Shown here in pieces: positions 3,143 through 37,644 of a DNA stretch of 37,825 nt. Made by a program: the position numbers and the translations under genes. Origin of the DNA: an uncultured Christensenellaceae bacterium (GTDB lineage Bacteria > Bacillota > Clostridia > Christensenellales > CAG-138); assembly GCA_902475645.1 (NCBI GenBank), contig CABSAH010000001.1:1-37825 (forward strand), written 5' to 3'. Within the stretch, counting starts at the first letter, position 1, and every line of letters begins with the position of its first letter. The notes beneath the pieces were generated by a model, which was not told the origin of the DNA, did not search any database, and saw only the letters and a list, made by a program, of their open reading frames with translations.

Positions 3143-4052
3143 AACTGCCAATATGTCCCGCGAGGACTGGCTCAATCTGCGTCGGCACAGCATAGGCGGC
3201 TCCGATGCGGCTGCAATAGTGGGGCTTAACGAATATGCCTCCCCCTTCTCCGTGTGGGCGGATAAGCGCGGGCTGACGGAGGACAAGCCCGACAATGAGG
3301 CCATGCGGCAGGGGCGCGACCTTGAGGAATATGTGGCGCAGCGGTTTTGCGCTGAGACGGGCAAGCGCGTTAAGAGGTGCAACTACACGCTGTATAACAC
3401 GCTGTATCCGTTCGCCCATGCAAATATTGACCGTAGTATCGTGGGAGAGAATGCGGGGCTTGAATGCAAAACAACTTCCGCTTTGAACATGCGGAAGTTC
3501 AAAAACGGCGAGTTCCCCGCAAATTACTATGTACAATGCATGCATTATATGGCCGTCACGGGCATGGATAAATGGTACTTGGCCGTGCTTGTGCTTAACA
3601 AGGCTTTCATGGTTTTCGAGATAGAGCGGGACGAGGGCGAGATTGCGGCGCTTATGGCCGCCGAGGAGGAATTCTGGGCGCATGTGAATGCGGGCGTTCC
3701 GCCCGCACCTGACGGCAGCAAGGCCACCACCGACGTTATAACCAAACTATACGCGGAAGCATATACGGACGATGTTGTCAATTTGGCTGACTGTATGCAA
3801 AATTTCTATGAGCTGAAAGCAATACAGGAGCAAATGAAAACGCTGGAGAGCCGAAAGAACGAGCTGCAAAACGTTATTAAAACGCACATGGGAGCCTCAG
3901 AGCGCGGAGAGTGCGGCGACTTCACCGTTACATGGAAGAATCAGAGGCGCACAAGCTATGATATGGGACGCTTAACGGCTGACTACCCCGACATAGACTT
4001 AGCAGGGTATGCGCGCACTACTCAAACGCGCGTTTTCAAAATAAGCATATAA
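3120..4052 (+). CDS. YqaJ-like viral recombinase-domain exonuclease (PD-(D/E)XK, lambda Exo-like)
   Basis: N-terminal signature REDWLNLRRHSIGGSDAAAIVGLNEYASPFSVWADKRG and the later ECKT motif, both typical of the YqaJ family. Immediately precedes RecT. Confidence 0.85.
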   Translation: MMTMKKIKTANMSREDWLNLRRHSIGGSDAAAIVGLNEYASPFSVWADKRGLTEDKPDNEAMRQGRDLEEYVAQRFCAETGKRVKRCNYTLYNTLYPFAHANIDRSIVGENAGLECKTTSALNMRKFKNGEFPANYYVQCMHYMAVTGMDKWYLAVLVLNKAFMVFEIERDEGEIAALMAAEEEFWAHVNAGVPPAPDGSKATTDVITKLYAEAYTDDVVNLADCMQNFYELKAIQEQMKTLESRKNELQNVIKTHMGASERGECGDFTVTWKNQRRTSYDMGRLTADYPDIDLAGYARTTQTRVFKISI

Positions 4053-4067
4053 GGAGAGAAAAAGAAG

Positions 4068-4928
4068 ATGGAAGCAAACAAAATCCAGAAGGCTACGGCC
4101 ACGGCAGCACCCGCCGCAAAAGCATCACAGACAGTTAATCAGCTAATGAACAGCATACTTGACGGAGAGGGTATGCGAAAGCGGTTTAATGACCTGCTCG
4201 GCAAACGCGCGCCGCAATTCATAAGCAGTGTTGTATCTATGGTTAATGCCGATAAGACAATGCAGATGGCCTTTTACGAAAGCCCGATGACCGTAATACA
4301 GGCCGCACTAAAGGCCGCGACCTTTGACCTACCTATAGACCAAAACCTTGGCTATGCCTATATAGTCCCGTTCAAAAATTACAAAAAGGATACGGGGAAA
4401 TCTGTGCATGAAGCGACTTTCATACTTGGCTGGAAGGGCATGCACCAGCTTGCACTACGCACGGGCGCTTATAAGACCATTAACGTGGTGGACGTGCGCG
4501 AAGGCGAGCTTGAGAGTTATAACCGCCTTACGGAGGAGGTGAAAATAAACTTTATTGAGGACGAGGAAGAGCGCGAGAGTAAACCCGTTATTGGGTATCT
4601 GGGCTATTATCGTTTGGTGAACGGGGCTGAGAAAACAATTTATATGTCCCTAAAGCAGATAGAGGCGCATGAACTGAAATTCCGCAAAGGGCAATCCATG
4701 GGTAAAGGCTGGCGGGATGACTTTGACGCGATGGCGCGTAAGACTGTATATCGCAAGCTAATCGGCAAATGGGGCGTGATGTCTATAGACTACCGCACCG
4801 TGGGCGAAGGGCAGCAGATAGCGGACGCGCTTGCGGCTGACGCGGAGCAGGAAAAGGCATTGGACAATGCCATAGATATAACGCCGCCCGAAAGCATAGA
4901 CGCAGAGACGGGCGAAATCAAGGAATAA
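4068..4928 (+). CDS. recT: RecT-family single-strand annealing recombinase
   Basis: Motifs SVVSMVNADKTM, GYAYIVPFKN, GWKGMHQLALRTGAYK and RKTVYRKLI match my memory of RecT. Paired with YqaJ upstream. Confidence 0.85.
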   Translation: MEANKIQKATATAAPAAKASQTVNQLMNSILDGEGMRKRFNDLLGKRAPQFISSVVSMVNADKTMQMAFYESPMTVIQAALKAATFDLPIDQNLGYAYIVPFKNYKKDTGKSVHEATFILGWKGMHQLALRTGAYKTINVVDVREGELESYNRLTEEVKINFIEDEEERESKPVIGYLGYYRLVNGAEKTIYMSLKQIEAHELKFRKGQSMGKGWRDDFDAMARKTVYRKLIGKWGVMSIDYRTVGEGQQIADALAADAEQEKALDNAIDITPPESIDAETGEIKE

Positions 4929-6635: not shown

Positions 6636-7015
6636 TGAAGCGCACATATACCCCGCCAACCGTGCCCTTGGAGGACGCGGAGCAACGGATAATCTTTCAA
6701 TGGGCGGCAATGGAGACCGCCGCTTGCCCTGAGCTGGGGCTGCTGTACGCCATACCCAACGGCGGCAAGCGGGCAATAAAAACCGCAATCGCGCTGAAGG
6801 CGCAGGGCGTTAAATCAGGTGTGCCTGATATGTGCTTACCCGTGGCACGCGGAGCCTACCACGGGCTATACATCGAGCTTAAACGGCAGCGTGGCGGCAC
6901 GGTGAGCGAGCTGCAAAAAGAGTGGATAACCGCACTTACAGGGCAAGGCTATAAGGCCGTGGTTTGCAGGGGCGCAGAGGAGGCGATACGGACGATAAAG
7001 GAGTATTTGAAATGA
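6635..7015 (+). CDS. VRR-NUC domain nuclease
   Basis: GVPDMCLPVARGAYHGLYIELKRQRGGTVSELQKEWITALTGQGYKAVVCRGAEEAIRTIKEYL carries the D...ExK core and the layout typical of VRR-NUC. Confidence 0.8.
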   Translation: MKRTYTPPTVPLEDAEQRIIFQWAAMETAACPELGLLYAIPNGGKRAIKTAIALKAQGVKSGVPDMCLPVARGAYHGLYIELKRQRGGTVSELQKEWITALTGQGYKAVVCRGAEEAIRTIKEYLK

Positions 7016-7404
7016 GCTGTATAAAAATCAAAAGGTTCCAGACGTGCGATATTTGCCACGTGGAGCGCGAAGTCGAAGTGGCGCTTACGGCGCTTGATTT
7101 GCCAATGTACACCGAAGAAGGGCCGTGGGGAGGACGTTGTACGACCATGTGCAGATTAGCGGTGTGTGATTACTGCATGGAGGATTTACGCGACTTGCTT
7201 GACACAAAATACGCGACGCGCGAGGAAAACGGCGAAAGAATTTGTTACAAAAGGGAGGACGGGGAATGTACCCGGAAATCTGCGGAAAATGGTACGCCAA
7301 CTTTAGCACATCCGAATGTACGGCGCTGGCTGAAAAAACTCATTTCAAGGTCAAAAAGGGCAGAGGACCCATTGATGGATAAGTGGCAACGTTTGGAGGA
7401 ATGA
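7012..7404 (+). CDS. Hypothetical Cys-rich protein (130 aa)
   Basis: ATGA overlap with the VRR-NUC stop. Several CxxC pairs (CDICH, CDYC). Confidence 0.5.
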   Translation: MSCIKIKRFQTCDICHVEREVEVALTALDLPMYTEEGPWGGRCTTMCRLAVCDYCMEDLRDLLDTKYATREENGERICYKREDGECTRKSAENGTPTLAHPNVRRWLKKLISRSKRAEDPLMDKWQRLEE

Positions 7405-7652: not shown

Positions 7653-7874
7653 ATGGATTGGATAAGCGTTAAGGACGGGATGCCGGAGGCAGGAATATAT
7701 GTCTTGGCTTGCTGCACAATGAAGGTGACAGACAAAATTAGATACGAGAAAGCGATTGTGATGGCGTTTGTTTGCGAAGATGGATTTGTAGACGTGGACC
7801 TTGACAAGGCAATCACGGCAGGCGTAACGCATTGGATGCCGCTGCCGGAGCTGCCGGAGGAGGGAAATCTGTAA
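7653..7874 (+). CDS. DUF551-like phage protein
   Basis: MDWISVKDGMPE...THWMPLPELP is the pattern I associate with DUF551. Confidence 0.65.
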   Translation: MDWISVKDGMPEAGIYVLACCTMKVTDKIRYEKAIVMAFVCEDGFVDVDLDKAITAGVTHWMPLPELPEEGNL

Positions 7875-8137
7875 TGAATATTTGTGATAAATGCAAGAAT
7901 TATTACCCGAATAATCATTACTGCCAATATTGGGATTGCGATGTCACGATACAACACGAAACGTGCTGCGGCTTTGCAAATATGACTAACGCCGACCTCA
8001 TCAGGACGATGAGCGACGAGGAACTGGCACATCTTTTAACTAACTGTTCAGTGGCTTCAGAATTTGATAGAAAATTTTGCTATCAAACGATTGTTGGCTG
8101 GCTTAGGCAACCAGCAGAGGAGACTGATGATGAATAA
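7874..8137 (+). CDS. Hypothetical Cys-rich protein (87 aa)
   Basis: TAATG overlap with the upstream stop. Begins MNICDKCKNYYPNNHYCQYWDCD. Confidence 0.55.
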   Translation: MNICDKCKNYYPNNHYCQYWDCDVTIQHETCCGFANMTNADLIRTMSDEELAHLLTNCSVASEFDRKFCYQTIVGWLRQPAEETDDE

Positions 8138-10875: not shown

Positions 10876-10991
10876 CGTGGATACACACACCCGCCACCTG
10901 CAAAGAGTGCAAACACTATGACAACAACAAAAAGCGGTGCGGCCTAAATTGGTGCAGATACCCCGCGCGAAGAGGGGGCGGCACGAGGTGA
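10872..10991 (+). CDS. Small Cys-rich protein (39 aa), tentative
   Basis: GTGA overlap with the upstream stop. Translation TWIHTPATCKECKHYDNNKKRCGLNWCRYPARRGGGTR. This is the 3' part of ORF 10686-10991. Confidence 0.35.
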   Translation: MTWIHTPATCKECKHYDNNKKRCGLNWCRYPARRGGGTR

Positions 10992-11224
10992 ATTTAAGGC
11001 GTGTAGCACATAGATTGCAGCAGGCTTTGTGTGCAAAGGGGATAAGGGTAAAAATAAATCAAGTACAAAGCTACTCTGAAAAGGCTGAAAGGATGGTGAA
11101 TAAATACGTGATAATCCAGACTGAAAAGCAGATGGATGGCAGAAATAAAAATACCACGCTACTTGAATCCTATCAGCTTGCAGAAGTAGTAAAGCTACTT
11201 GCAGGACTGTACAAGGATGCCTAA
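10988..11224 (+). CDS. Hypothetical protein (78 aa)
   Basis: GTGA overlap with the previous ORF and AGAGGGGG upstream. This is the 3' part of ORF 10937-11224. Confidence 0.45.
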   Translation: MNLRRVAHRLQQALCAKGIRVKINQVQSYSEKAERMVNKYVIIQTEKQMDGRNKNTTLLESYQLAEVVKLLAGLYKDA

Positions 11225-11627
11225 GCCTAAGACAGACAAGCTCACGCTTACCCCAAAACAAAAAGCCTTTGCAGAATTTTATATACAGTGCGGTAATGCA
11301 ACCGAGGCAGCACGTAAAGCTGGGTATCCAGAAAAAAGCGCAAAAAGCATAGGCAATGAGAACTTGACAAAGCCCCACATCCGTGCATATATAGACAAAC
11401 TTACCGCACCAGACGAAGAAAAGCGCATAGCGGACGCGCAAGAAGTCATGCAATTTTACAGCGCCGTTATGCGCGGTGAAGTTAAAGACAGTTTCGGGCT
11501 TGATGCAGCTTTGGCAGACCGATTAAAAGCTGGTGATGCGCTGATGAAGCGCTTTATTGCAATGCAGGGCAAGGCGGCAGAGAATGAATGTGAAGACCTT
11601 ACGCCGCTGGCGAATATGCTGAAATAG
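11217..11627 (+). CDS. terS: Terminase small subunit
   Basis: LTPKQKAFAEFYIQCGNATEAARKAGYPEKSAKSIGNENLTKPHIRAYID is the classic Terminase_2 HTH signature. Lies directly upstream of the large subunit. Confidence 0.8.
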   Translation: MPKPKTDKLTLTPKQKAFAEFYIQCGNATEAARKAGYPEKSAKSIGNENLTKPHIRAYIDKLTAPDEEKRIADAQEVMQFYSAVMRGEVKDSFGLDAALADRLKAGDALMKRFIAMQGKAAENECEDLTPLANMLK

Positions 11628-34135: not shown

Positions 34136-34372
34136 GTGGACAAAAAGACCTTGCAGACCCTTTCCCGCGCGGAATGGGAAGGGATTATCTATCAGCGGAT
34201 TTTTAGTGAGCGCGACCGCTGGCTTGTGGCGCGTCACCTGCTGGATGGTGTGCCTTATGACAGGCTTACAGCGGAGTACCAGGCGCGATATACAGATGCG
34301 CCGCTGGAGTATGACCAAATCCGCCGCCGATATAGGGCAGCGGAAAAGACAATAATAAAATATGCCCCCTGA
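34136..34372 (+). CDS. Small sigma-region-4-like HTH protein (78 aa)
   Basis: GTG start with a weak RBS. IFSERDRWLVARHLLDGVPYDRLTAEY resembles a region-4 HTH. This is the last + strand gene before a strong terminator. Confidence 0.5.
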   Translation: MDKKTLQTLSRAEWEGIIYQRIFSERDRWLVARHLLDGVPYDRLTAEYQARYTDAPLEYDQIRRRYRAAEKTIIKYAP

Positions 34373-34393
34373 TGGGGGCTTTTTTGCTTTTTT
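34364..34393 (+). terminator. Rho-independent terminator ending the late operon
   Basis: GCCCCC-TGAT-GGGGGC followed by TTTTTTGCTTTTTT. The stop codon sits in the loop. Confidence 0.75.
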
Positions 34394-34463
34394 GGGATTT
34401 AGTAAATCTCAACACCCAGCTTGGCGGCGGCGGCCTTCATAAGGCGCATTCATCAGCAATTTT

Positions 34464-35033
34464 TTATGCCTCGTCAATTCTGCGCGCCGCCTCAGCTCCA
34501 AGGCGGTCTTTATAGTCCTCATAGCCCCAGTATACTTCATATGGGAATTCACTCCGCTCAAATATAACAGCTTCAGGATGCCTTTCCCGATATCTCGATG
34601 TAGGGCTGGTATTGCTGGGGAATATCCAACCTGGGTTACAGTACCATTCCTCAACCGCCGCATAATAATGGAACCGGAAGTCGGGTTCTACCACATCATC
34701 CTCCTCTCGCTCTAAGACATAATATGTTTTACAAAAAACAGCATGGCACGCGATTAACTCATTGCACTCCATTATTTCTTCAAAGCAGCGTGCATTGGCA
34801 TCTTTACGAAAAGCCACACGAGAGTCAAACTTTATTTTATCGCAATGAGTATGTAGCCCGCAAGCACCTATGTAGTCAGCAGTGCATGTGCGTGGATATA
34901 ACCGCTCAAATTCCGGCAATACATCAATTGGTTTCCACCCTGCCGGAATCTGTTTAACGTCGGTTATAAAGGGTACGTCAGTAGGGCATTCTTCAACTGT
35001 GAGATACACACCAAGGTCATAATATCGTTCCAT
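34464..35033 (-). CDS. Hypothetical Cys/His-rich acidic protein (189 aa), cargo gene 1
   Basis: RBS AAGGAG 7 nt upstream. Driven by consensus promoter copy A. I recognise no family. Confidence 0.65.
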   Translation of the reverse strand: MERYYDLGVYLTVEECPTDVPFITDVKQIPAGWKPIDVLPEFERLYPRTCTADYIGACGLHTHCDKIKFDSRVAFRKDANARCFEEIMECNELIACHAVFCKTYYVLEREEDDVVEPDFRFHYYAAVEEWYCNPGWIFPSNTSPTSRYRERHPEAVIFERSEFPYEVYWGYEDYKDRLGAEAARRIDEA

Positions 35034-35079
35034 TTTCTAACTCCTTTCGGGGTTTTACCCCTTGCTTTATCATGGCTCT

Positions 35080-35108
35080 ATTATATACTATTCCGGAATA
35101 GATGTCAA
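35080..35108 (-). promoter_or_regulatory. Consensus promoter copy A: TTGACA-N17-TATAAT with the palindrome CTATTCCGGAATAG in the spacer
   Basis: On the minus strand, -35 is at 35108-35103 and -10 at 35085-35080. The operator-like palindrome is at 35088-35101. An AT-rich 10-bp-stem palindrome lies at 35112-35135 just upstream. Confidence 0.7.
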
Positions 35109-35136
35109 TAGTTTTTCTAAACTTTTTTAGAAAAAA

Positions 35137-35328
35137 TTATTCCCCGCGCTGCATGGCATTGTCGATGATGCGGTTTATAAACTCGGTCATGCTCTCCCCC
35201 TTTTTTGCCGCATATTCTTTTATGAGCTGTTTTTTGCCCTGCGGCACAAATACATCGATTCTATCCATAGATGCGCGGTAAGCATCATAATATTTTTTGT
35301 TGCTTTTGTACTTGGCGTTTTTCTCCAT
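35137..35328 (-). CDS. Ribbon-helix-helix (Arc/CopG-like) DNA-binding protein
   Basis: RIDVFVPQGKKQLIKEYAAKKGESMTEFINRIIDNAM fits a beta-strand, helix, helix RHH layout. 63 aa. Confidence 0.7.
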   Translation of the reverse strand: MEKNAKYKSNKKYYDAYRASMDRIDVFVPQGKKQLIKEYAAKKGESMTEFINRIIDNAMQRGE

Positions 35329-35335
35329 CTTGTGC

Positions 35336-35365
35336 TTGACAATCCTCGCTTTCGTGTGATAGTAT
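35336..35365 (+). promoter_or_regulatory. Candidate promoter for the mini-CRISPR array (TTGACA-N18-TAGTAT with a TG extended -10)
   Basis: TTGACA at 35336-35341, TG at 35357-35358 and TAGTAT at 35360-35365. The predicted transcription start is around 35372, at the left arm of the flanking inverted repeat. Confidence 0.5.
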
Positions 35366-35384
35366 AGGTCAAGAAGTAATTCCC

Positions 35385-35474
35385 GTGTTCCCCGCGTAAG
35401 CGGGGGTGACTCTTGAGCTCATCGTAGAGGCGGTCAAAGAATACTGTGTTCCCCGCGTAAGCGGGGGTGGCCTA
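35385..35474 (+). CRISPR. Cas-less mini-CRISPR array: two type I-E-like 29-nt repeats and one 32-nt spacer
   Basis: GTGTTCCCCGCGTAAGCGGGGGTG is identical at 35385 and 35446, a 61-nt period equal to 29+32. The stem CCCCGC/GCGGGG with a 4-nt loop and a GTGA... 3' handle resembles type I-E repeats (compare E. coli GTGTTCCCCGCGCCAGCGGGGATAAACCG). The spacer is TGAGCTCATCGTAGAGGCGGTCAAAGAATACT. The 3' end of repeat 2 is degenerate. Confidence 0.7.
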
Positions 35475-35506
35475 GACTAAAGCTAATGCTCTGTCATGGC
35501 AATTTG

Positions 35507-35526
35507 GGGAATTACTTCTTTTTTTT
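35507..35526 (+). terminator. Right arm of the 14-bp inverted repeat plus a T-tract closing the mini-array transcript
   Basis: GGGAATTACTTCTT (35507-35520) is the reverse complement of AAGAAGTAATTCCC (35371-35384). It runs straight into further Ts to 35526. Confidence 0.45.
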
Positions 35527-35530
35527 GTAC

Positions 35531-36331
35531 TTAGTCCTGGTCGAACCGGAATTTCAGCCATCCCTCGGGGATGCCGTTCTCGCTTGCTTGGCTCAGTATC
35601 TCGGCCTTTAGTTCGTCGTAAGCTTCACGGCTTTCGGGAGCCTTCTTTTTGCTCTTGACCTCGGCGTATAGCTCGATGTCGTTTATCTCGACCATCATCC
35701 AGTCTACACCGTGCGTCCCGTATCGGCTTTCGCCGGATTGATATTCCACCTCATACGGCTCACAAAAATTACACACGCAGTTGCCTTCCTTGTCGTCCCA
35801 CATTTCTCGGTAGAGGTAAAAATATTTCCCACAAACAGCACATTTGCAGTAGCATGCTGCTCGGGCGTGGTCAGCATTGAAAAATATCTTGCCGTCCGCT
35901 GCCGTAATCATTCCATCTTCTTCCCCTGCGTGAATCTCTACGCCCCAAGTTTCCGCTTTCTTTATGGTTTCTTCATCGAAGCAGATAGGGTCGAATCTGG
36001 CTTTTTTCTTGAGAAATTCCGCTAATGCTACATAAAAGCAGGTGCCGAGGTCGCCGTATTCGCCGCAATAATCGCCACAATTTAACCCTAACTCTTCGCA
36101 CAAATCTTCGTACATATCATCGTCCCCGCCTTCATCGTAATTAACGATTGCGTCAAGCAGCTCTTCGGCTTCGGGATATTTTATACGTACAAAATCGTCC
36201 GCAGAAGCCTCCTCGTCGCCATACCATTCAGCTTCCAGTAGCTTATCGAGTATGTAATGCGGAATCAAACCTGCGCCGTACTTTTCGCGCGCCTTCGTGC
36301 CTTCGATTGCCCTGTAATAATAGTTCATCAT
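35531..36331 (-). CDS. Hypothetical highly acidic protein with a C-terminal Cys cluster (266 aa), cargo gene 2
   Basis: RBS AAAGGAG. D/E-rich N-terminal half (DEGGDDDMYEDLCEELG). CYCKCAVCGKYF...CVCNFCEPYE zinc-ribbon-like cluster. Driven by promoter copy B. Confidence 0.7.
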   Translation of the reverse strand: MMNYYYRAIEGTKAREKYGAGLIPHYILDKLLEAEWYGDEEASADDFVRIKYPEAEELLDAIVNYDEGGDDDMYEDLCEELGLNCGDYCGEYGDLGTCFYVALAEFLKKKARFDPICFDEETIKKAETWGVEIHAGEEDGMITAADGKIFFNADHARAACYCKCAVCGKYFYLYREMWDDKEGNCVCNFCEPYEVEYQSGESRYGTHGVDWMMVEINDIELYAEVKSKKKAPESREAYDELKAEILSQASENGIPEGWLKFRFDQD

Positions 36332-36376
36332 TTCTAACTCCTTTCGGGCTTTGCCCTTGCTTTACTTGATGGTCTT

Positions 36377-36405
36377 ATTATATACTATTCCGGAATAGTT
36401 GTCAA
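36377..36405 (-). promoter_or_regulatory. Consensus promoter copy B: TTGACA-N17-TATAAT with the palindrome CTATTCCGGAATAG in the spacer
   Basis: On the minus strand, -35 is at 36405-36400 and -10 at 36382-36377. The palindrome is at 36385-36398 and the AT-rich palindrome at 36409-36432. It is part of a ~108-bp direct repeat with 35031-35139. Confidence 0.7.
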
Positions 36406-36448
36406 GGGTTTTTCTAAACTTTTTTAGAAAAAATTTATGCCCGTAAAT

Positions 36449-36493
36449 GCCCTGCAAATGCCCGCTGTGCGCACTCAAAGCAGGGCTTTTTTT
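36449..36493 (+). terminator. Orphan + strand terminator-like structure (GCCCTGC...GCAGGGC plus T7)
   Basis: 7-bp stem enclosing a 24-nt loop that contains the GTGCGCAC palindrome, followed by TTTTTTT. No + strand gene lies upstream of it. Confidence 0.45.
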
Positions 36494-36549
36494 ATGCGAA
36501 AATCAGGGTATGATAGCTATCTAAATATCATTAAAAGGAGATACTAAAA

Positions 36550-36987
36550 ATGGCAGAATTTGCATCAAGGGGAGTAGCTAATACCGGGCTTGGCTTTGGC
36601 ATAGCCGGAACCGCAATTAGCCTGCTTGACGGTCTTAGCGGCCTGATGGCCAATCGCCGCAACAGCGACGATGCCCCCGTGAGCCGCTATGAGCTATCGC
36701 TTGTCCAGGAAAACGCGATTCTCAAGGCACAGGCGGACGTGGACAAGAAGCTTGTCGAGGTCTACGAGGTTATAAACGACAAGGCCAACGCAAACCGCGA
36801 GCGCTTCACGGCCTTCGAGAAGGAGCAGCTTGTATATAACGGCGTGAACTCCGCGACAATCGGCTGCTTGCAGCAGCAGGTCAACGCCCTGCTGGGTATG
36901 ACTAAGATGGTCATACCTAACAGCTCCGTCTGCCCCGGTTGGGGCGAGGCTAAAGTGACCGTATCTACCGGCACGGCCGCGGCCTGA
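36550..36987 (+). CDS. Hypothetical protein with a Gly-rich hydrophobic N-terminus (145 aa)
   Basis: Strong RBS AAAAGGAG. N-terminus GVANTGLGFGIAGTAISLLDGLSGLM, a central coiled-coil-like part, and CPGWG near the C-terminus. Confidence 0.6.
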   Translation: MAEFASRGVANTGLGFGIAGTAISLLDGLSGLMANRRNSDDAPVSRYELSLVQENAILKAQADVDKKLVEVYEVINDKANANRERFTAFEKEQLVYNGVNSATIGCLQQQVNALLGMTKMVIPNSSVCPGWGEAKVTVSTGTAAA

Positions 36988-37000
36988 AAGGCAGCGCCAC

Positions 37001-37339
37001 ATGATAAGCGTACAGCAAGCCGAAAAAGGGCTAATGCGCTACATAGATAGCGAGATAATGCCTAAGCTTACGGGCTGGCGCAAAGTGGGCATGGGGGCGT
37101 ATATCGCCCTCATAGCCCGCAATGGGCGAAGCCTGATAGCAAAGTACAAAGACCACCCCGCCGTTACCGTGCTGAATGTCACGGACGGCGAAAGCATGGA
37201 TATAGACGCGGTATATAATGCCGTCCTGCCATACGCGGACGAGGCAATCAAAATCGACATTCCCGCCATCGGGGAAATATCGTTTAATCGCGACGATATA
37301 GACAAGATGTACCGCTACATGAAAGGAGAAAGCGAATGA
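37001..37339 (+). CDS. Hypothetical protein (112 aa)
   Basis: From the ORF track. Closely follows the previous gene and has an ATGA overlap with the next. Confidence 0.55.
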   Translation: MISVQQAEKGLMRYIDSEIMPKLTGWRKVGMGAYIALIARNGRSLIAKYKDHPAVTVLNVTDGESMDIDAVYNAVLPYADEAIKIDIPAIGEISFNRDDIDKMYRYMKGESE

Positions 37340-37644
37340 CTTTTATAAAAGACCTGTCGGAGCGCATATCCGAGGAGATAGCCGATGCCGAGTACTACGC
37401 CAAGCACGCCCTGAGCGCGAAAGACGAGTACCCCACGGCGGCACAGACTTTTTACACAATCGCGGGGCAGGAGCTAAACCACGCCTCCATGCTACACGAC
37501 CTTGCCACCCGCGCCATTGCGGACTACCGCGCAAAGCACGGCGAACCGCCCGCGGCCATGGAGGCCGTCTACAAATATTTGCACGAGCAGCAGATTGAGC
37601 ATACCGAAGCGGTAAAAAGGTATCTGGATATGTATAAGGCGTAA
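37336..37644 (+). CDS. Small all-helical hypothetical protein (102 aa)
   Basis: RBS AAAGGAGA. Predicted helical bundle with an ExxH-like motif (QELNHA). Family not recognised. Confidence 0.6.
   Translation: MTFIKDLSERISEEIADAEYYAKHALSAKDEYPTAAQTFYTIAGQELNHASMLHDLATRAIADYRAKHGEPPAAMEAVYKYLHEQQIEHTEAVKRYLDMYKA

Follow-up and report, generated by a model that had tools for sequence, protein, structure and literature searches.

Known Anti-CRISPR Systems and the Locus Compared with Them

Phage-encoded mimics of CRISPR repeats, or Racrs, inhibit CRISPR-Cas of type I-E, a function that has been validated, and are found clustered with anti-CRISPR (acr) genes (Camara-Wilpert et al. 2023, PMC10651486); in a Bifidobacterium prophage, an AcrIC5 homologue lies 11 nucleotides (nt) from a Racr (PMC10651486). 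Viral arrays of the Cracr kind, which resemble CRISPR RNA (crRNA), silence cas operons (bioRxiv 10.1101/2024.10.29.618823), and are recognized by a spacer that is partly complementary, with at least 9 base pairs (bp) proximal to the protospacer adjacent motif, to the host cas promoter or CreT (bioRxiv 10.1101/2024.10.29.618823). Regulation by anti-CRISPR-associated (Aca) proteins of the ribbon-helix-helix (RHH) type has been described for Aca14 (bioRxiv 10.64898/2026.07.27.740549) and for the RHH domain of AcrIE10 (PMC13530269). Here we compare these systems with a locus at positions 34385-36443 of a 37,825-nt stretch of contig CABSAH010000001.1, hereafter the window, which is the genome of a human-gut siphophage. 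In a variable slot behind the lysis genes, this locus encodes on the minus strand a 266-amino acid (aa) acidic protein, a 63-aa RHH protein and a 189-aa acidic protein, in this order, while the gap between the first two contains a CRISPR-repeat RNA on the plus strand. The results of our analysis indicate, with a probability of roughly 0.6, that it is an accessory anti-CRISPR locus directed against type I-E systems.

Judged by its sequence, the locus is a new case of the known Racr-Acr-Aca kind, with proteins that fall into none of the Acr or Aca families described so far. As in Racr-acr loci, a CRISPR-repeat mimic is present in a phage, outside any CRISPR-Cas system, with its own predicted promoter and beside candidate acr genes. 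However, the window has two repeats and a 33-nt spacer, its RNA is enclosed in a covarying clamp stem of 12-14 bp with a second hairpin, this RNA is convergent to the neighbouring protein gene and overlapped by a putative read-through transcript, and the neighbouring proteins lie outside all known Acr families. With Aca14 and AcrIE10 the locus shares a small, putatively RHH protein in the position of aca and an inverted repeat overlapping the core promoter, and with Aca14 also the presence of the same palindrome in the promoter of its own operon (P1) and in a neighbouring one (P2), together with a K-rich N-terminal extension; the operator sequence is nevertheless different and the similarity to Aca14 is marginal. 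The C-terminal domain of the 266-aa protein, which we call C72, is fused elsewhere to AcrIC5 and to helix-turn-helix (HTH) domains, in the manner of Acr-Acr and Acr-Aca fusions, whereas the window protein lacks an AcrIC5 domain, combines C72 with an acidic N-terminal domain and a putative zinc ribbon, and accompanies an RNA of type I-E rather than I-C. Like Cracr arrays, the window has a phage-borne mini-array of I-E-like repeats with degenerate ends beside acr-like genes, but no match of its spacer to a cas promoter or CreT was found in the fetched host loci or public collections, and its relatives are spacerless. The earlier note on this DNA considered that a combination of protein and RNA inhibitors might be undescribed, a claim superseded by the clustering of Racr and acr genes published in 2023 (PMC10651486). 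What the papers on Racr, Cracr and Aca do not spell out is the clamp stem, the strict set of protein partners and the convergent overlap with the effector operon.

The Clamped CRISPR-Repeat RNA and Its Protein Neighbours

The 202-nt gap between the 266-aa and RHH genes contains, on the plus strand, two identical 24-nt I-E-like repeat cores 61 nt apart, in agreement with the mini-array that the earlier note had recognized there. Except for its last 3-5 nt, the window repeat is identical to the host type I-E repeat GTGTTCCCCGCGTAAGCGGGGGTGATCC, which has a 61-nt period and occurs in Lachnoanaerobaculum saburreum, Bombilactobacillus apium and metagenome-assembled genomes (MAGs) of Clostridiales and Actinomycetes. 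The altered bases correspond to the 5' handle of crRNA, so that the handle derived from repeat 1 reads GUGACUC rather than GUGAUCC. No cas genes are found among the ten large open reading frames (ORFs) of the window that were scanned.

The RNA (35371-35528, plus strand) is predicted to comprise an outer 14-bp stem, two repeats, a spacer, a tail hairpin and a U-run. Its promoter-like site (35336-35365, plus strand), with TTGACA at 35336, a spacer of 16-18 nt and a TG-extended -10 element, overlaps the region in which translation of the RHH gene begins on the opposite strand, and retains its position in five loci. The complementary 14-nt clamp arms (35371-35384, AAGAAGTAATTCCC, and 35507-35520, GGGAATTACTTCTT) enclose repeat 1 (35385-35412), a spacer of 32-33 nt (35413-35445), repeat 2 (35446-35473), both repeats being of 28 nt and beginning with GTGTTCCCCGCGTAAGCGGGGGTG, and a 45-nt tail with its hairpin, after which a run of eight T follows (35521-35528). 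In the predicted fold, which has a minimum free energy of -68.3 kcal/mol (z = -6.1), the outer clamp surrounds two repeat hairpins and the tail hairpin. All five RNAs that were folded (those of the window and of loci L001, L002, L005 and L008) are predicted to combine a clamp stem with the hairpin of the repeat, another hairpin and the U-run, with z values ranging from -4.8 to -6.1. Their clamp stems have three distinct sequences, AAGAAGUAAUUCCC, GAGAUGUUUCUC and AGAAGCGCUUCUG, the L005 arm being a close variant of AAGAAGUAAUUCCC; since these sequences differ and yet are each fully complementary, they support a selected RNA structure. No Rfam family is matched in the window.

Clamped repeat RNAs of this type were found in eight loci of mobile elements, in all of which they abut a gene encoding either C72 or another domain, X. 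In the window, L001 and L002 the RNA is convergent to a gene for an acidic N-terminal domain, a zinc ribbon and C72; in L035, L036 and L037 it is convergent to the gene of P0010, a fusion of domain X and C72; in phage MT835524.1 (L008) it is convergent to a 227-aa gene combining domain X with another C-terminus; and in L005 it is divergent from the gene of a 174-aa domain X protein. Both full-length homologues of the 266-aa protein have a single copy of the repeat convergent at their stop codon, complete with promoter, clamp arms and T-run. The adjacency of RNA and protein thus persists across different genomic positions and protein architectures, and cassette content varies between related phages. 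In L002 (73-746, equivalent to window 10878-11554) and L035 (module 3253-4700) the module of promoter, C72 gene and repeat RNA lies beside the small terminase gene rather than behind the lysis genes, a position indicating that the module is a mobile cassette. Of the two large proteins that the earlier note tied to type I-E, it is the 266-aa family that retains this connection, with I-E repeat RNA beside it in every related locus found, whereas the 189-aa protein shows no CRISPR association.

Whereas a spacer separates two repeats in the window, its relatives (L001, L002, L005, L008 and L035-37) have a solitary repeat and no spacer. The mini-array (35385-35474) equals the single repeat of L001 (7383-7407) plus exactly 61 nt, namely a 28-nt repeat and a 33-nt spacer, and this increment equals the period of host I-E arrays. 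From its sequence, the window array looks like the product of one event of spacer acquisition or recombination on a solitary phage repeat.

I-E repeats in other arrangements were also encountered. The Negativicutes MAG contig L022 has three copies of the same I-E repeat (943-962, 1646-1665 and 1930-1949), with irregular spacing of 703 and 284 nt; these are perhaps solitary repeats, or else what is left of a decayed array. Two high-GC actinophage contigs (L006:2590-2690 and L007:810-1030) carry short I-E mini-arrays (GTTGTCCCCGCCCGCGCGGGGGTGATCC) in which a variant last repeat is followed by a terminator.

The 266-aa Protein and the C72 Domain

Full-length homologues of the 266-aa protein (35531-36331, minus strand) number only two among 5.8 billion proteins, and their alignment divides it into three parts: an acidic domain of some 110 aa at the N-terminus (aa 1-112, nt 36331-35996), a middle part (aa 113-192, nt 35995-35756) with the HAGEEDGMITAADG motif and a CxxC...CxxC signature, and the C-terminal C72 domain of about 72 aa (aa 193-266, nt 35755-35534). 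The N-terminal domain exists also in a stand-alone form, as a 94-aa protein beneath the same cassette head in gut phage MT835524.1. Within the middle part, the motif HAGEE..MITAADG is invariant, as are C164, C167, C187 and C190, and these four cysteines form a predicted zinc ribbon. They are the only conserved ones among the 12 cysteines of the protein. The N-terminal Cys cluster, which the earlier note had singled out, has no counterpart in one homologue and is not conserved in the second, and was consequently dropped as a functional hallmark; the conserved cysteine feature is the CxxC...CxxC ribbon instead.

As the earlier note had it, neither large protein can be assigned to a known family, since profile and structure searches (Pfam, PHROGs, PDB and Foldseek) returned none. 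For the 266-aa protein there is no match in Pfam, PHROGs, PADLOC or NCBIfam, and none in tblastn searches of annotated phages and plasmids. PDB sequence searches with alignment profiles A1, A2 and A5 (the last comprising 56 C72 sequences) likewise yielded nothing, and IMG/VR, as far as it was searched with A1, A5 and the RHH protein, provided no related loci. AlphaFold2 gave a usable model for residues ~150-266 only, in which C72 has a beta-beta-beta-alpha topology with a predicted local distance difference test (pLDDT) score of 75-94. Foldseek searches of PDB and BFVD with the model of the 266-aa protein yielded nothing significant (best E values 0.06-0.2), while the C-terminal domain produced weak matches to folds of the double-stranded RNA-binding domain (dsRBD) and HPF type (E 0.2-1). 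The suggestion that these acidic proteins are DNA mimics acting as anti-restriction factors found no backing, as no search revealed similarity to Ocr or Ard; such an identity (Ocr, ArdA) is unsupported by Pfam, by PDB and by the above Foldseek values, the model of the N-terminal half being unreliable.

The C72 domain is considerably more widespread than the protein containing it. When 1.84 billion representatives were scanned in full with HMMER (E <= 1e-3), 205 cluster representatives were retrieved, nearly all of which match in C72 alone. Many members consist of nothing but the domain, at 73-85 aa in length, and not one of them is named, carries a Pfam domain or has had its structure solved. 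When 148 C72 members were scanned with Pfam, two of them, P0028 and P0024, were found to have C72 fused to AcrIC5 (PF22147), while five members have HTH domains fused to C72 (among them HTH_17 in two, and HTH_26 and HTH_3 in one each). P0028 (139 aa) consists of C72 followed by full-length AcrIC5 (76 bits), and its gene, to which the window C72 is 42% identical (E = 7e-11), directly follows a holin gene and precedes a small HTH ORF and a terminator; this locus has the gene order of a canonical acr-aca operon. Fusions of Acr domains with one another and with HTH domains of the Aca type are known, as in AcrIE4-F7, AcrIIA1 and AcrIF24, and because of this the fusion of C72 with AcrIC5 argues for an anti-CRISPR role through guilt by association, which we consider genuine even if it concerns few members. 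The AcrIC5 model PF22147 itself is matched by neither the 266-aa nor the 189-aa protein.

In two phage contigs, a hammerhead ribozyme of type II (Rfam RF02276, scoring 49-54 bits against a gathering score of 37) is located directly 3' of a stand-alone C72 gene (L013:4244-4308 and L014:4247-4311).

Cassette Heads and the Putative RHH Regulator

Both large genes have a head of 113 nt in front of them (36331-36443 and 35034-35146), the two nearly identical copies having 88% identity across a 75-nt repeat and 95% across a 22-nt repeat. Both contain a perfect TTGACA-17-TATAAT promoter, P1 for the 266-aa and P2 for the 189-aa gene, with the palindrome CTATTCCGGAATAG between -35 and -10, as well as the inverted repeat TTCTAAA-N4-TTTAGAA upstream of the promoter; the 189-aa gene does therefore possess its own promoter copy, as previously noted. 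In head 1 (minus strand) the inverted repeat spans 36409-36432, the -35 element TTGACA 36400-36405, CTATTCCGGAATAG 36385-36398 and the -10 element TATAAT 36377-36382, and the leader has a GGGC/GCCC hairpin in the 5' untranslated region (5'UTR; ~36346-36356) followed by a GGAG ribosome-binding site. The equivalent elements of head 2 (minus strand) are at 35112-35135, 35103-35108, 35088-35101 and 35080-35085, with the 5'UTR hairpin at 35049-35061 and then the ribosome-binding site. An alignment indicates that leader hairpin and ribosome-binding site are kept in five cassettes with different genes, the bases of the stem varying. This GC hairpin (window 35034-35062 and 36331-36358) recalls the structured 5'UTR motifs reported for acr-aca operons.

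The only DNA-binding gene within the locus is that of the 63-aa basic protein (35137-35328, minus strand; pI 9.6), a putative Aca-like repressor. Its ORF is present as the earlier note described, while its assignment to the RHH fold is consistent but sub-threshold: Pfam matches are to RepB-RCR_reg, ParG, RHH_5 and TacA1 (E 8e-4 to 0.08), those in PHROGs include Arc-like families (weakly, PHROG 582) and phrog_13890 at 2.6e-11, and in PDB we retrieved ParG (E = 0.016) besides an unrelated cathepsin (E = 0.93). Among annotated proteins, its best match (E = 6e-7) is to the "Arc-like repressor" of Flavonifractor phage Chenonceau, the gene of which has in its own promoter region palindromes of the TACTTCCGGTAGTA type (TTCCGG core), similar to the CTATTCCGGAATAG of the window. 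Another homologue is encoded by the last gene in its setting, after two small ORFs. With Aca14 (WP_005725436.1) the RHH protein shows a marginal match, with 31% identity over 49 aa and E = 0.028 in pairwise BLASTP, and it has the same K-rich N-terminal extension; the Chenonceau homologue in turn matches Aca14 with E = 8e-4. AcrIE10 chains are not among the PDB sequence matches of the RHH protein, and searches with profiles A1 and A2 produced nothing relevant.

Phage MT835524.1 has the same head three times, but with the operator TTTGTCA-N11-TGACAAA and a 159-aa HTH regulator; operator and regulator thus change together, which supports the pairing of the RHH protein with its palindrome. Since the minus strand of the gap has no consensus promoter for the RHH gene, read-through from P1 is the simplest source of its transcript, and the protein is probably made in this way, the transcript crossing the repeat RNA locus in antisense to the RNA. 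The resemblance to acr-aca operons that the earlier note had stressed accordingly holds for the gene order, the palindromic promoters, the RHH gene in the position of aca and, by association, the C72-AcrIC5 fusion elsewhere, but does not extend to any match with an Acr family.

The three heads of MT835524.1 (L008:5725-5781, 6944-6999 and 7851-7921) lead into genes of 94, 202 and 227 aa. Its own clamped I-E repeat RNA, at 7094-7186, accompanies the HTH regulator.

Proposed Explanation and Its Alternatives

In the explanation that we favour, every functional step is inferred, the observations being the underlying sequence features. The promoters P1 and P2, which have the host-type consensus, would fire on phage entry and produce the 266-aa and 189-aa acidic proteins early, from the conserved leader with its hairpin and ribosome-binding site. 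The third promoter, on the other strand, would yield a structured RNA of ~160 nt presenting two hairpins of the host I-E repeat with altered 5'-handle bases; closed by the 14-bp clamp stem and the U-run, this RNA could act as a Racr-type decoy for Cas6e or Cascade. The 266-aa protein would be its protein anti-CRISPR partner, with C72 as the likeliest effector part, most likely binding a Cas component. Finally, the RHH protein made by read-through from P1 would bind CTATTCCGGAATAG in P1 and P2 and shut both cassettes, an Aca-like negative feedback.

Several points weigh against this explanation. The window RNA is not a solitary repeat, unlike what defines a Racr. No match to its spacer was found when the window, the fetched host loci, viral contigs and metagenome contigs were searched, and no further copy of the operator of P1 and P2 turned up in public viral or metagenome contigs; binding of the RHH protein to the CTATTCCGGAATAG palindrome is itself inferred. 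No known Acr, Aca, Ard or Ocr family or structure is matched by any gene of the window, and the AlphaFold2 model of the 266-aa protein is poor over residues 1-143. The AcrIC5 link concerns 2/148 members and an inhibitor of type I-C rather than I-E, and C72 genes also exist without I-E repeat RNA nearby, for which reason C72 might be a generic oligomerisation or adaptor domain.

These last genes, together with the lack of an Acr family match, would suit the alternative that survives best, to which we give a limited but real chance, namely that the locus consists of generic moron or accessory cassettes in which the acidic proteins serve another anti-defence target, superinfection exclusion or host takeover, independently of the repeat RNA. 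The slot is indeed a variable hot spot in which different genes lie under the same head, and homologues of the 189-aa protein are found in unrelated operons without RHH or repeat RNA. Against it, the repeat RNA lies beside a C72 or X gene in 8/8 related loci, and C72 is fused to AcrIC5 within acr-aca operons.

Somewhat less probable is a stricter form of the anti-CRISPR explanation, in which the repeat RNA and its neighbour protein are not two independent inhibitors but an obligate two-component anti-CRISPR ribonucleoprotein. The proteins with C72, X, the acidic N-terminal domain or the zinc ribbon would in that case bind either the clamped RNA or the Cas6e or Cascade assembled on it, and would either trap Cas proteins on the decoy or shield the latter; convergent overlapping transcription could then couple the doses in which the RNA, the effector and the RHH repressor are made. 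Such a complex is compatible with the weak dsRBD/HPF-like matches in fold shown by the C-terminal domain (E 0.2-1), which do not constitute evidence for it.

It seems unlikely that the mini-array is a working guide RNA, by which host Cascade would be turned on a competitor phage or the host cas operon repressed in a Cracr-like manner, with the proteins accessory or unrelated. The window alone has a full repeat-spacer unit of 61 nt at the period of host arrays, and viral Cracr arrays against I-E systems have been described; all its relatives, though, have a single repeat without spacer, the 5' handle of repeat 1 is altered (GUGACUC vs GUGAUCC), and the spacer finds neither a target in viral contigs, metagenome contigs and fetched host loci nor a convincing match to a cas promoter or CreT in the same host loci and public collections.

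More doubtful still is a module similar to immI of phage P22, with an Arc-like RHH protein repressing antirepressor promoters and an antisense RNA, in the control of lysogeny or cross-induction. The weak match to PHROG 582 and the Chenonceau annotation do point to an Arc-like protein, and strong promoters with operators as well as an antisense RNA between genes are present, but Ant, Bro and KilA domains are absent from the 266-aa and 189-aa proteins, the antisense RNA mimics CRISPR repeats, and an integrase or CI-type module was not seen among the ten large ORFs scanned, a search that was not exhaustive. The notion of a type II toxin-antitoxin pair, with the RHH protein as antitoxin (it has weak matches to the TacA1 and RelB families) and one large protein as toxin, is very improbable and was rejected because no toxin family is matched and no pairing is conserved, the large proteins being very acidic, a full promoter separating the RHH and 189-aa genes, and the place of RHH being taken by an HTH gene in L001 and by nothing comparable in L003 or L004.

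If the accessory anti-CRISPR explanation is correct, C72, of which gut and other metagenomes contain more than 200 clusters at 50% identity, would constitute a new family of anti-CRISPR domains. Known Aca families are sparse in Firmicutes phages, and another RHH-type Aca with a clean operator would help searches by guilt by association in them. Moreover, a structured Racr variant wired to particular proteins would provide a natural system in which to examine if RNA and protein anti-CRISPRs work together mechanistically, a point that the 2023 Racr paper (PMC10651486) did not settle. Because Lachnospiraceae and further taxa of the gut and mouth have I-E systems with this repeat, the inhibitors would bear on how phages and their hosts interact in the human gut.

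The 189-aa Protein

The 189-aa Cys/His-rich protein (34464-35033, minus strand) has five homologues with 67-70% identity, the genes of which stand first or second in long operons made up of small uncharacterised genes in AT-rich elements. Their loci contain neither RHH nor repeat RNA, and the DNA similarity to these elements is limited to the 189-aa gene itself. No link to a family, structure or profile emerged from Pfam, PHROGs, PADLOC, NCBIfam, PDB or hhalign, tblastn searches of annotated phages gave no match, and its AlphaFold2 model is useless (pLDDT 34). Nor was a relationship to the 266-aa protein found, either in BLASTP or when C72 is compared with the 189-aa family by hhalign. The shared promoter and operator are its sole tie to the locus, with no CRISPR-related association, and it would be co-regulated cargo, possibly another anti-defence factor.

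Phage Setting and Layout of the Region

The window is recognizable as a siphophage genome by its genes for RecE/RecT, large terminase, portal, major head protein, tape measure, tail fibre and endolysin, all of which are on the plus strand. After the lysis genes, a 78-aa ORF and a bidirectional terminator, the coding strand flips. This GC-rich terminator hairpin (34364-34379, both strands) closes the late operon on the plus strand and the 189-aa cassette on the minus strand, and forms the left edge of the variable cargo region, the point at which homology to the related phage MT835524.1 ends. Beyond it, as the earlier note stated, three ORFs lie on the opposite strand in DNA richer in AT, the GC content being 45.6% (34400-36450) vs 52.0% in the rest of the window, and the sign of the GC skew is reversed in the region.

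Both large proteins are acidic and rich in Cys, again as earlier described, with pI 4.37 and 4.74 and Cys contents of 4.5% and 4.8% for the 266-aa and 189-aa protein, respectively. No other protein of the phage is as acidic as the 266-aa one (the minimum in the background, formed by the 39 other phage ORFs of 100 aa or more, being pI 4.58), which has 22.6% D+E vs a background maximum of 19.8%, and the Cys content of both large proteins exceeds the background 90th percentile of 2.6%; they include the motifs CYCKCAVC and CVCNFC. Purifying selection against homologues (dN/dS 0.25-0.39 for both genes together; 0.31 for the 266-aa and 0.25-0.30 for the 189-aa gene) indicates that the two are real genes.

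On the plus strand, a terminator-like hairpin with a T-run is present at 36447-36497, just beyond cassette head 1, and has no plus-strand gene upstream of it. Further along, the interval 36550-37644 contains plus-strand genes of 145, 112 and 102 aa, the last of which is weakly rubrerythrin-like; these genes are situated in or beside a stretch not aligning with MT835524.1, with which alignment picks up again at 37441.

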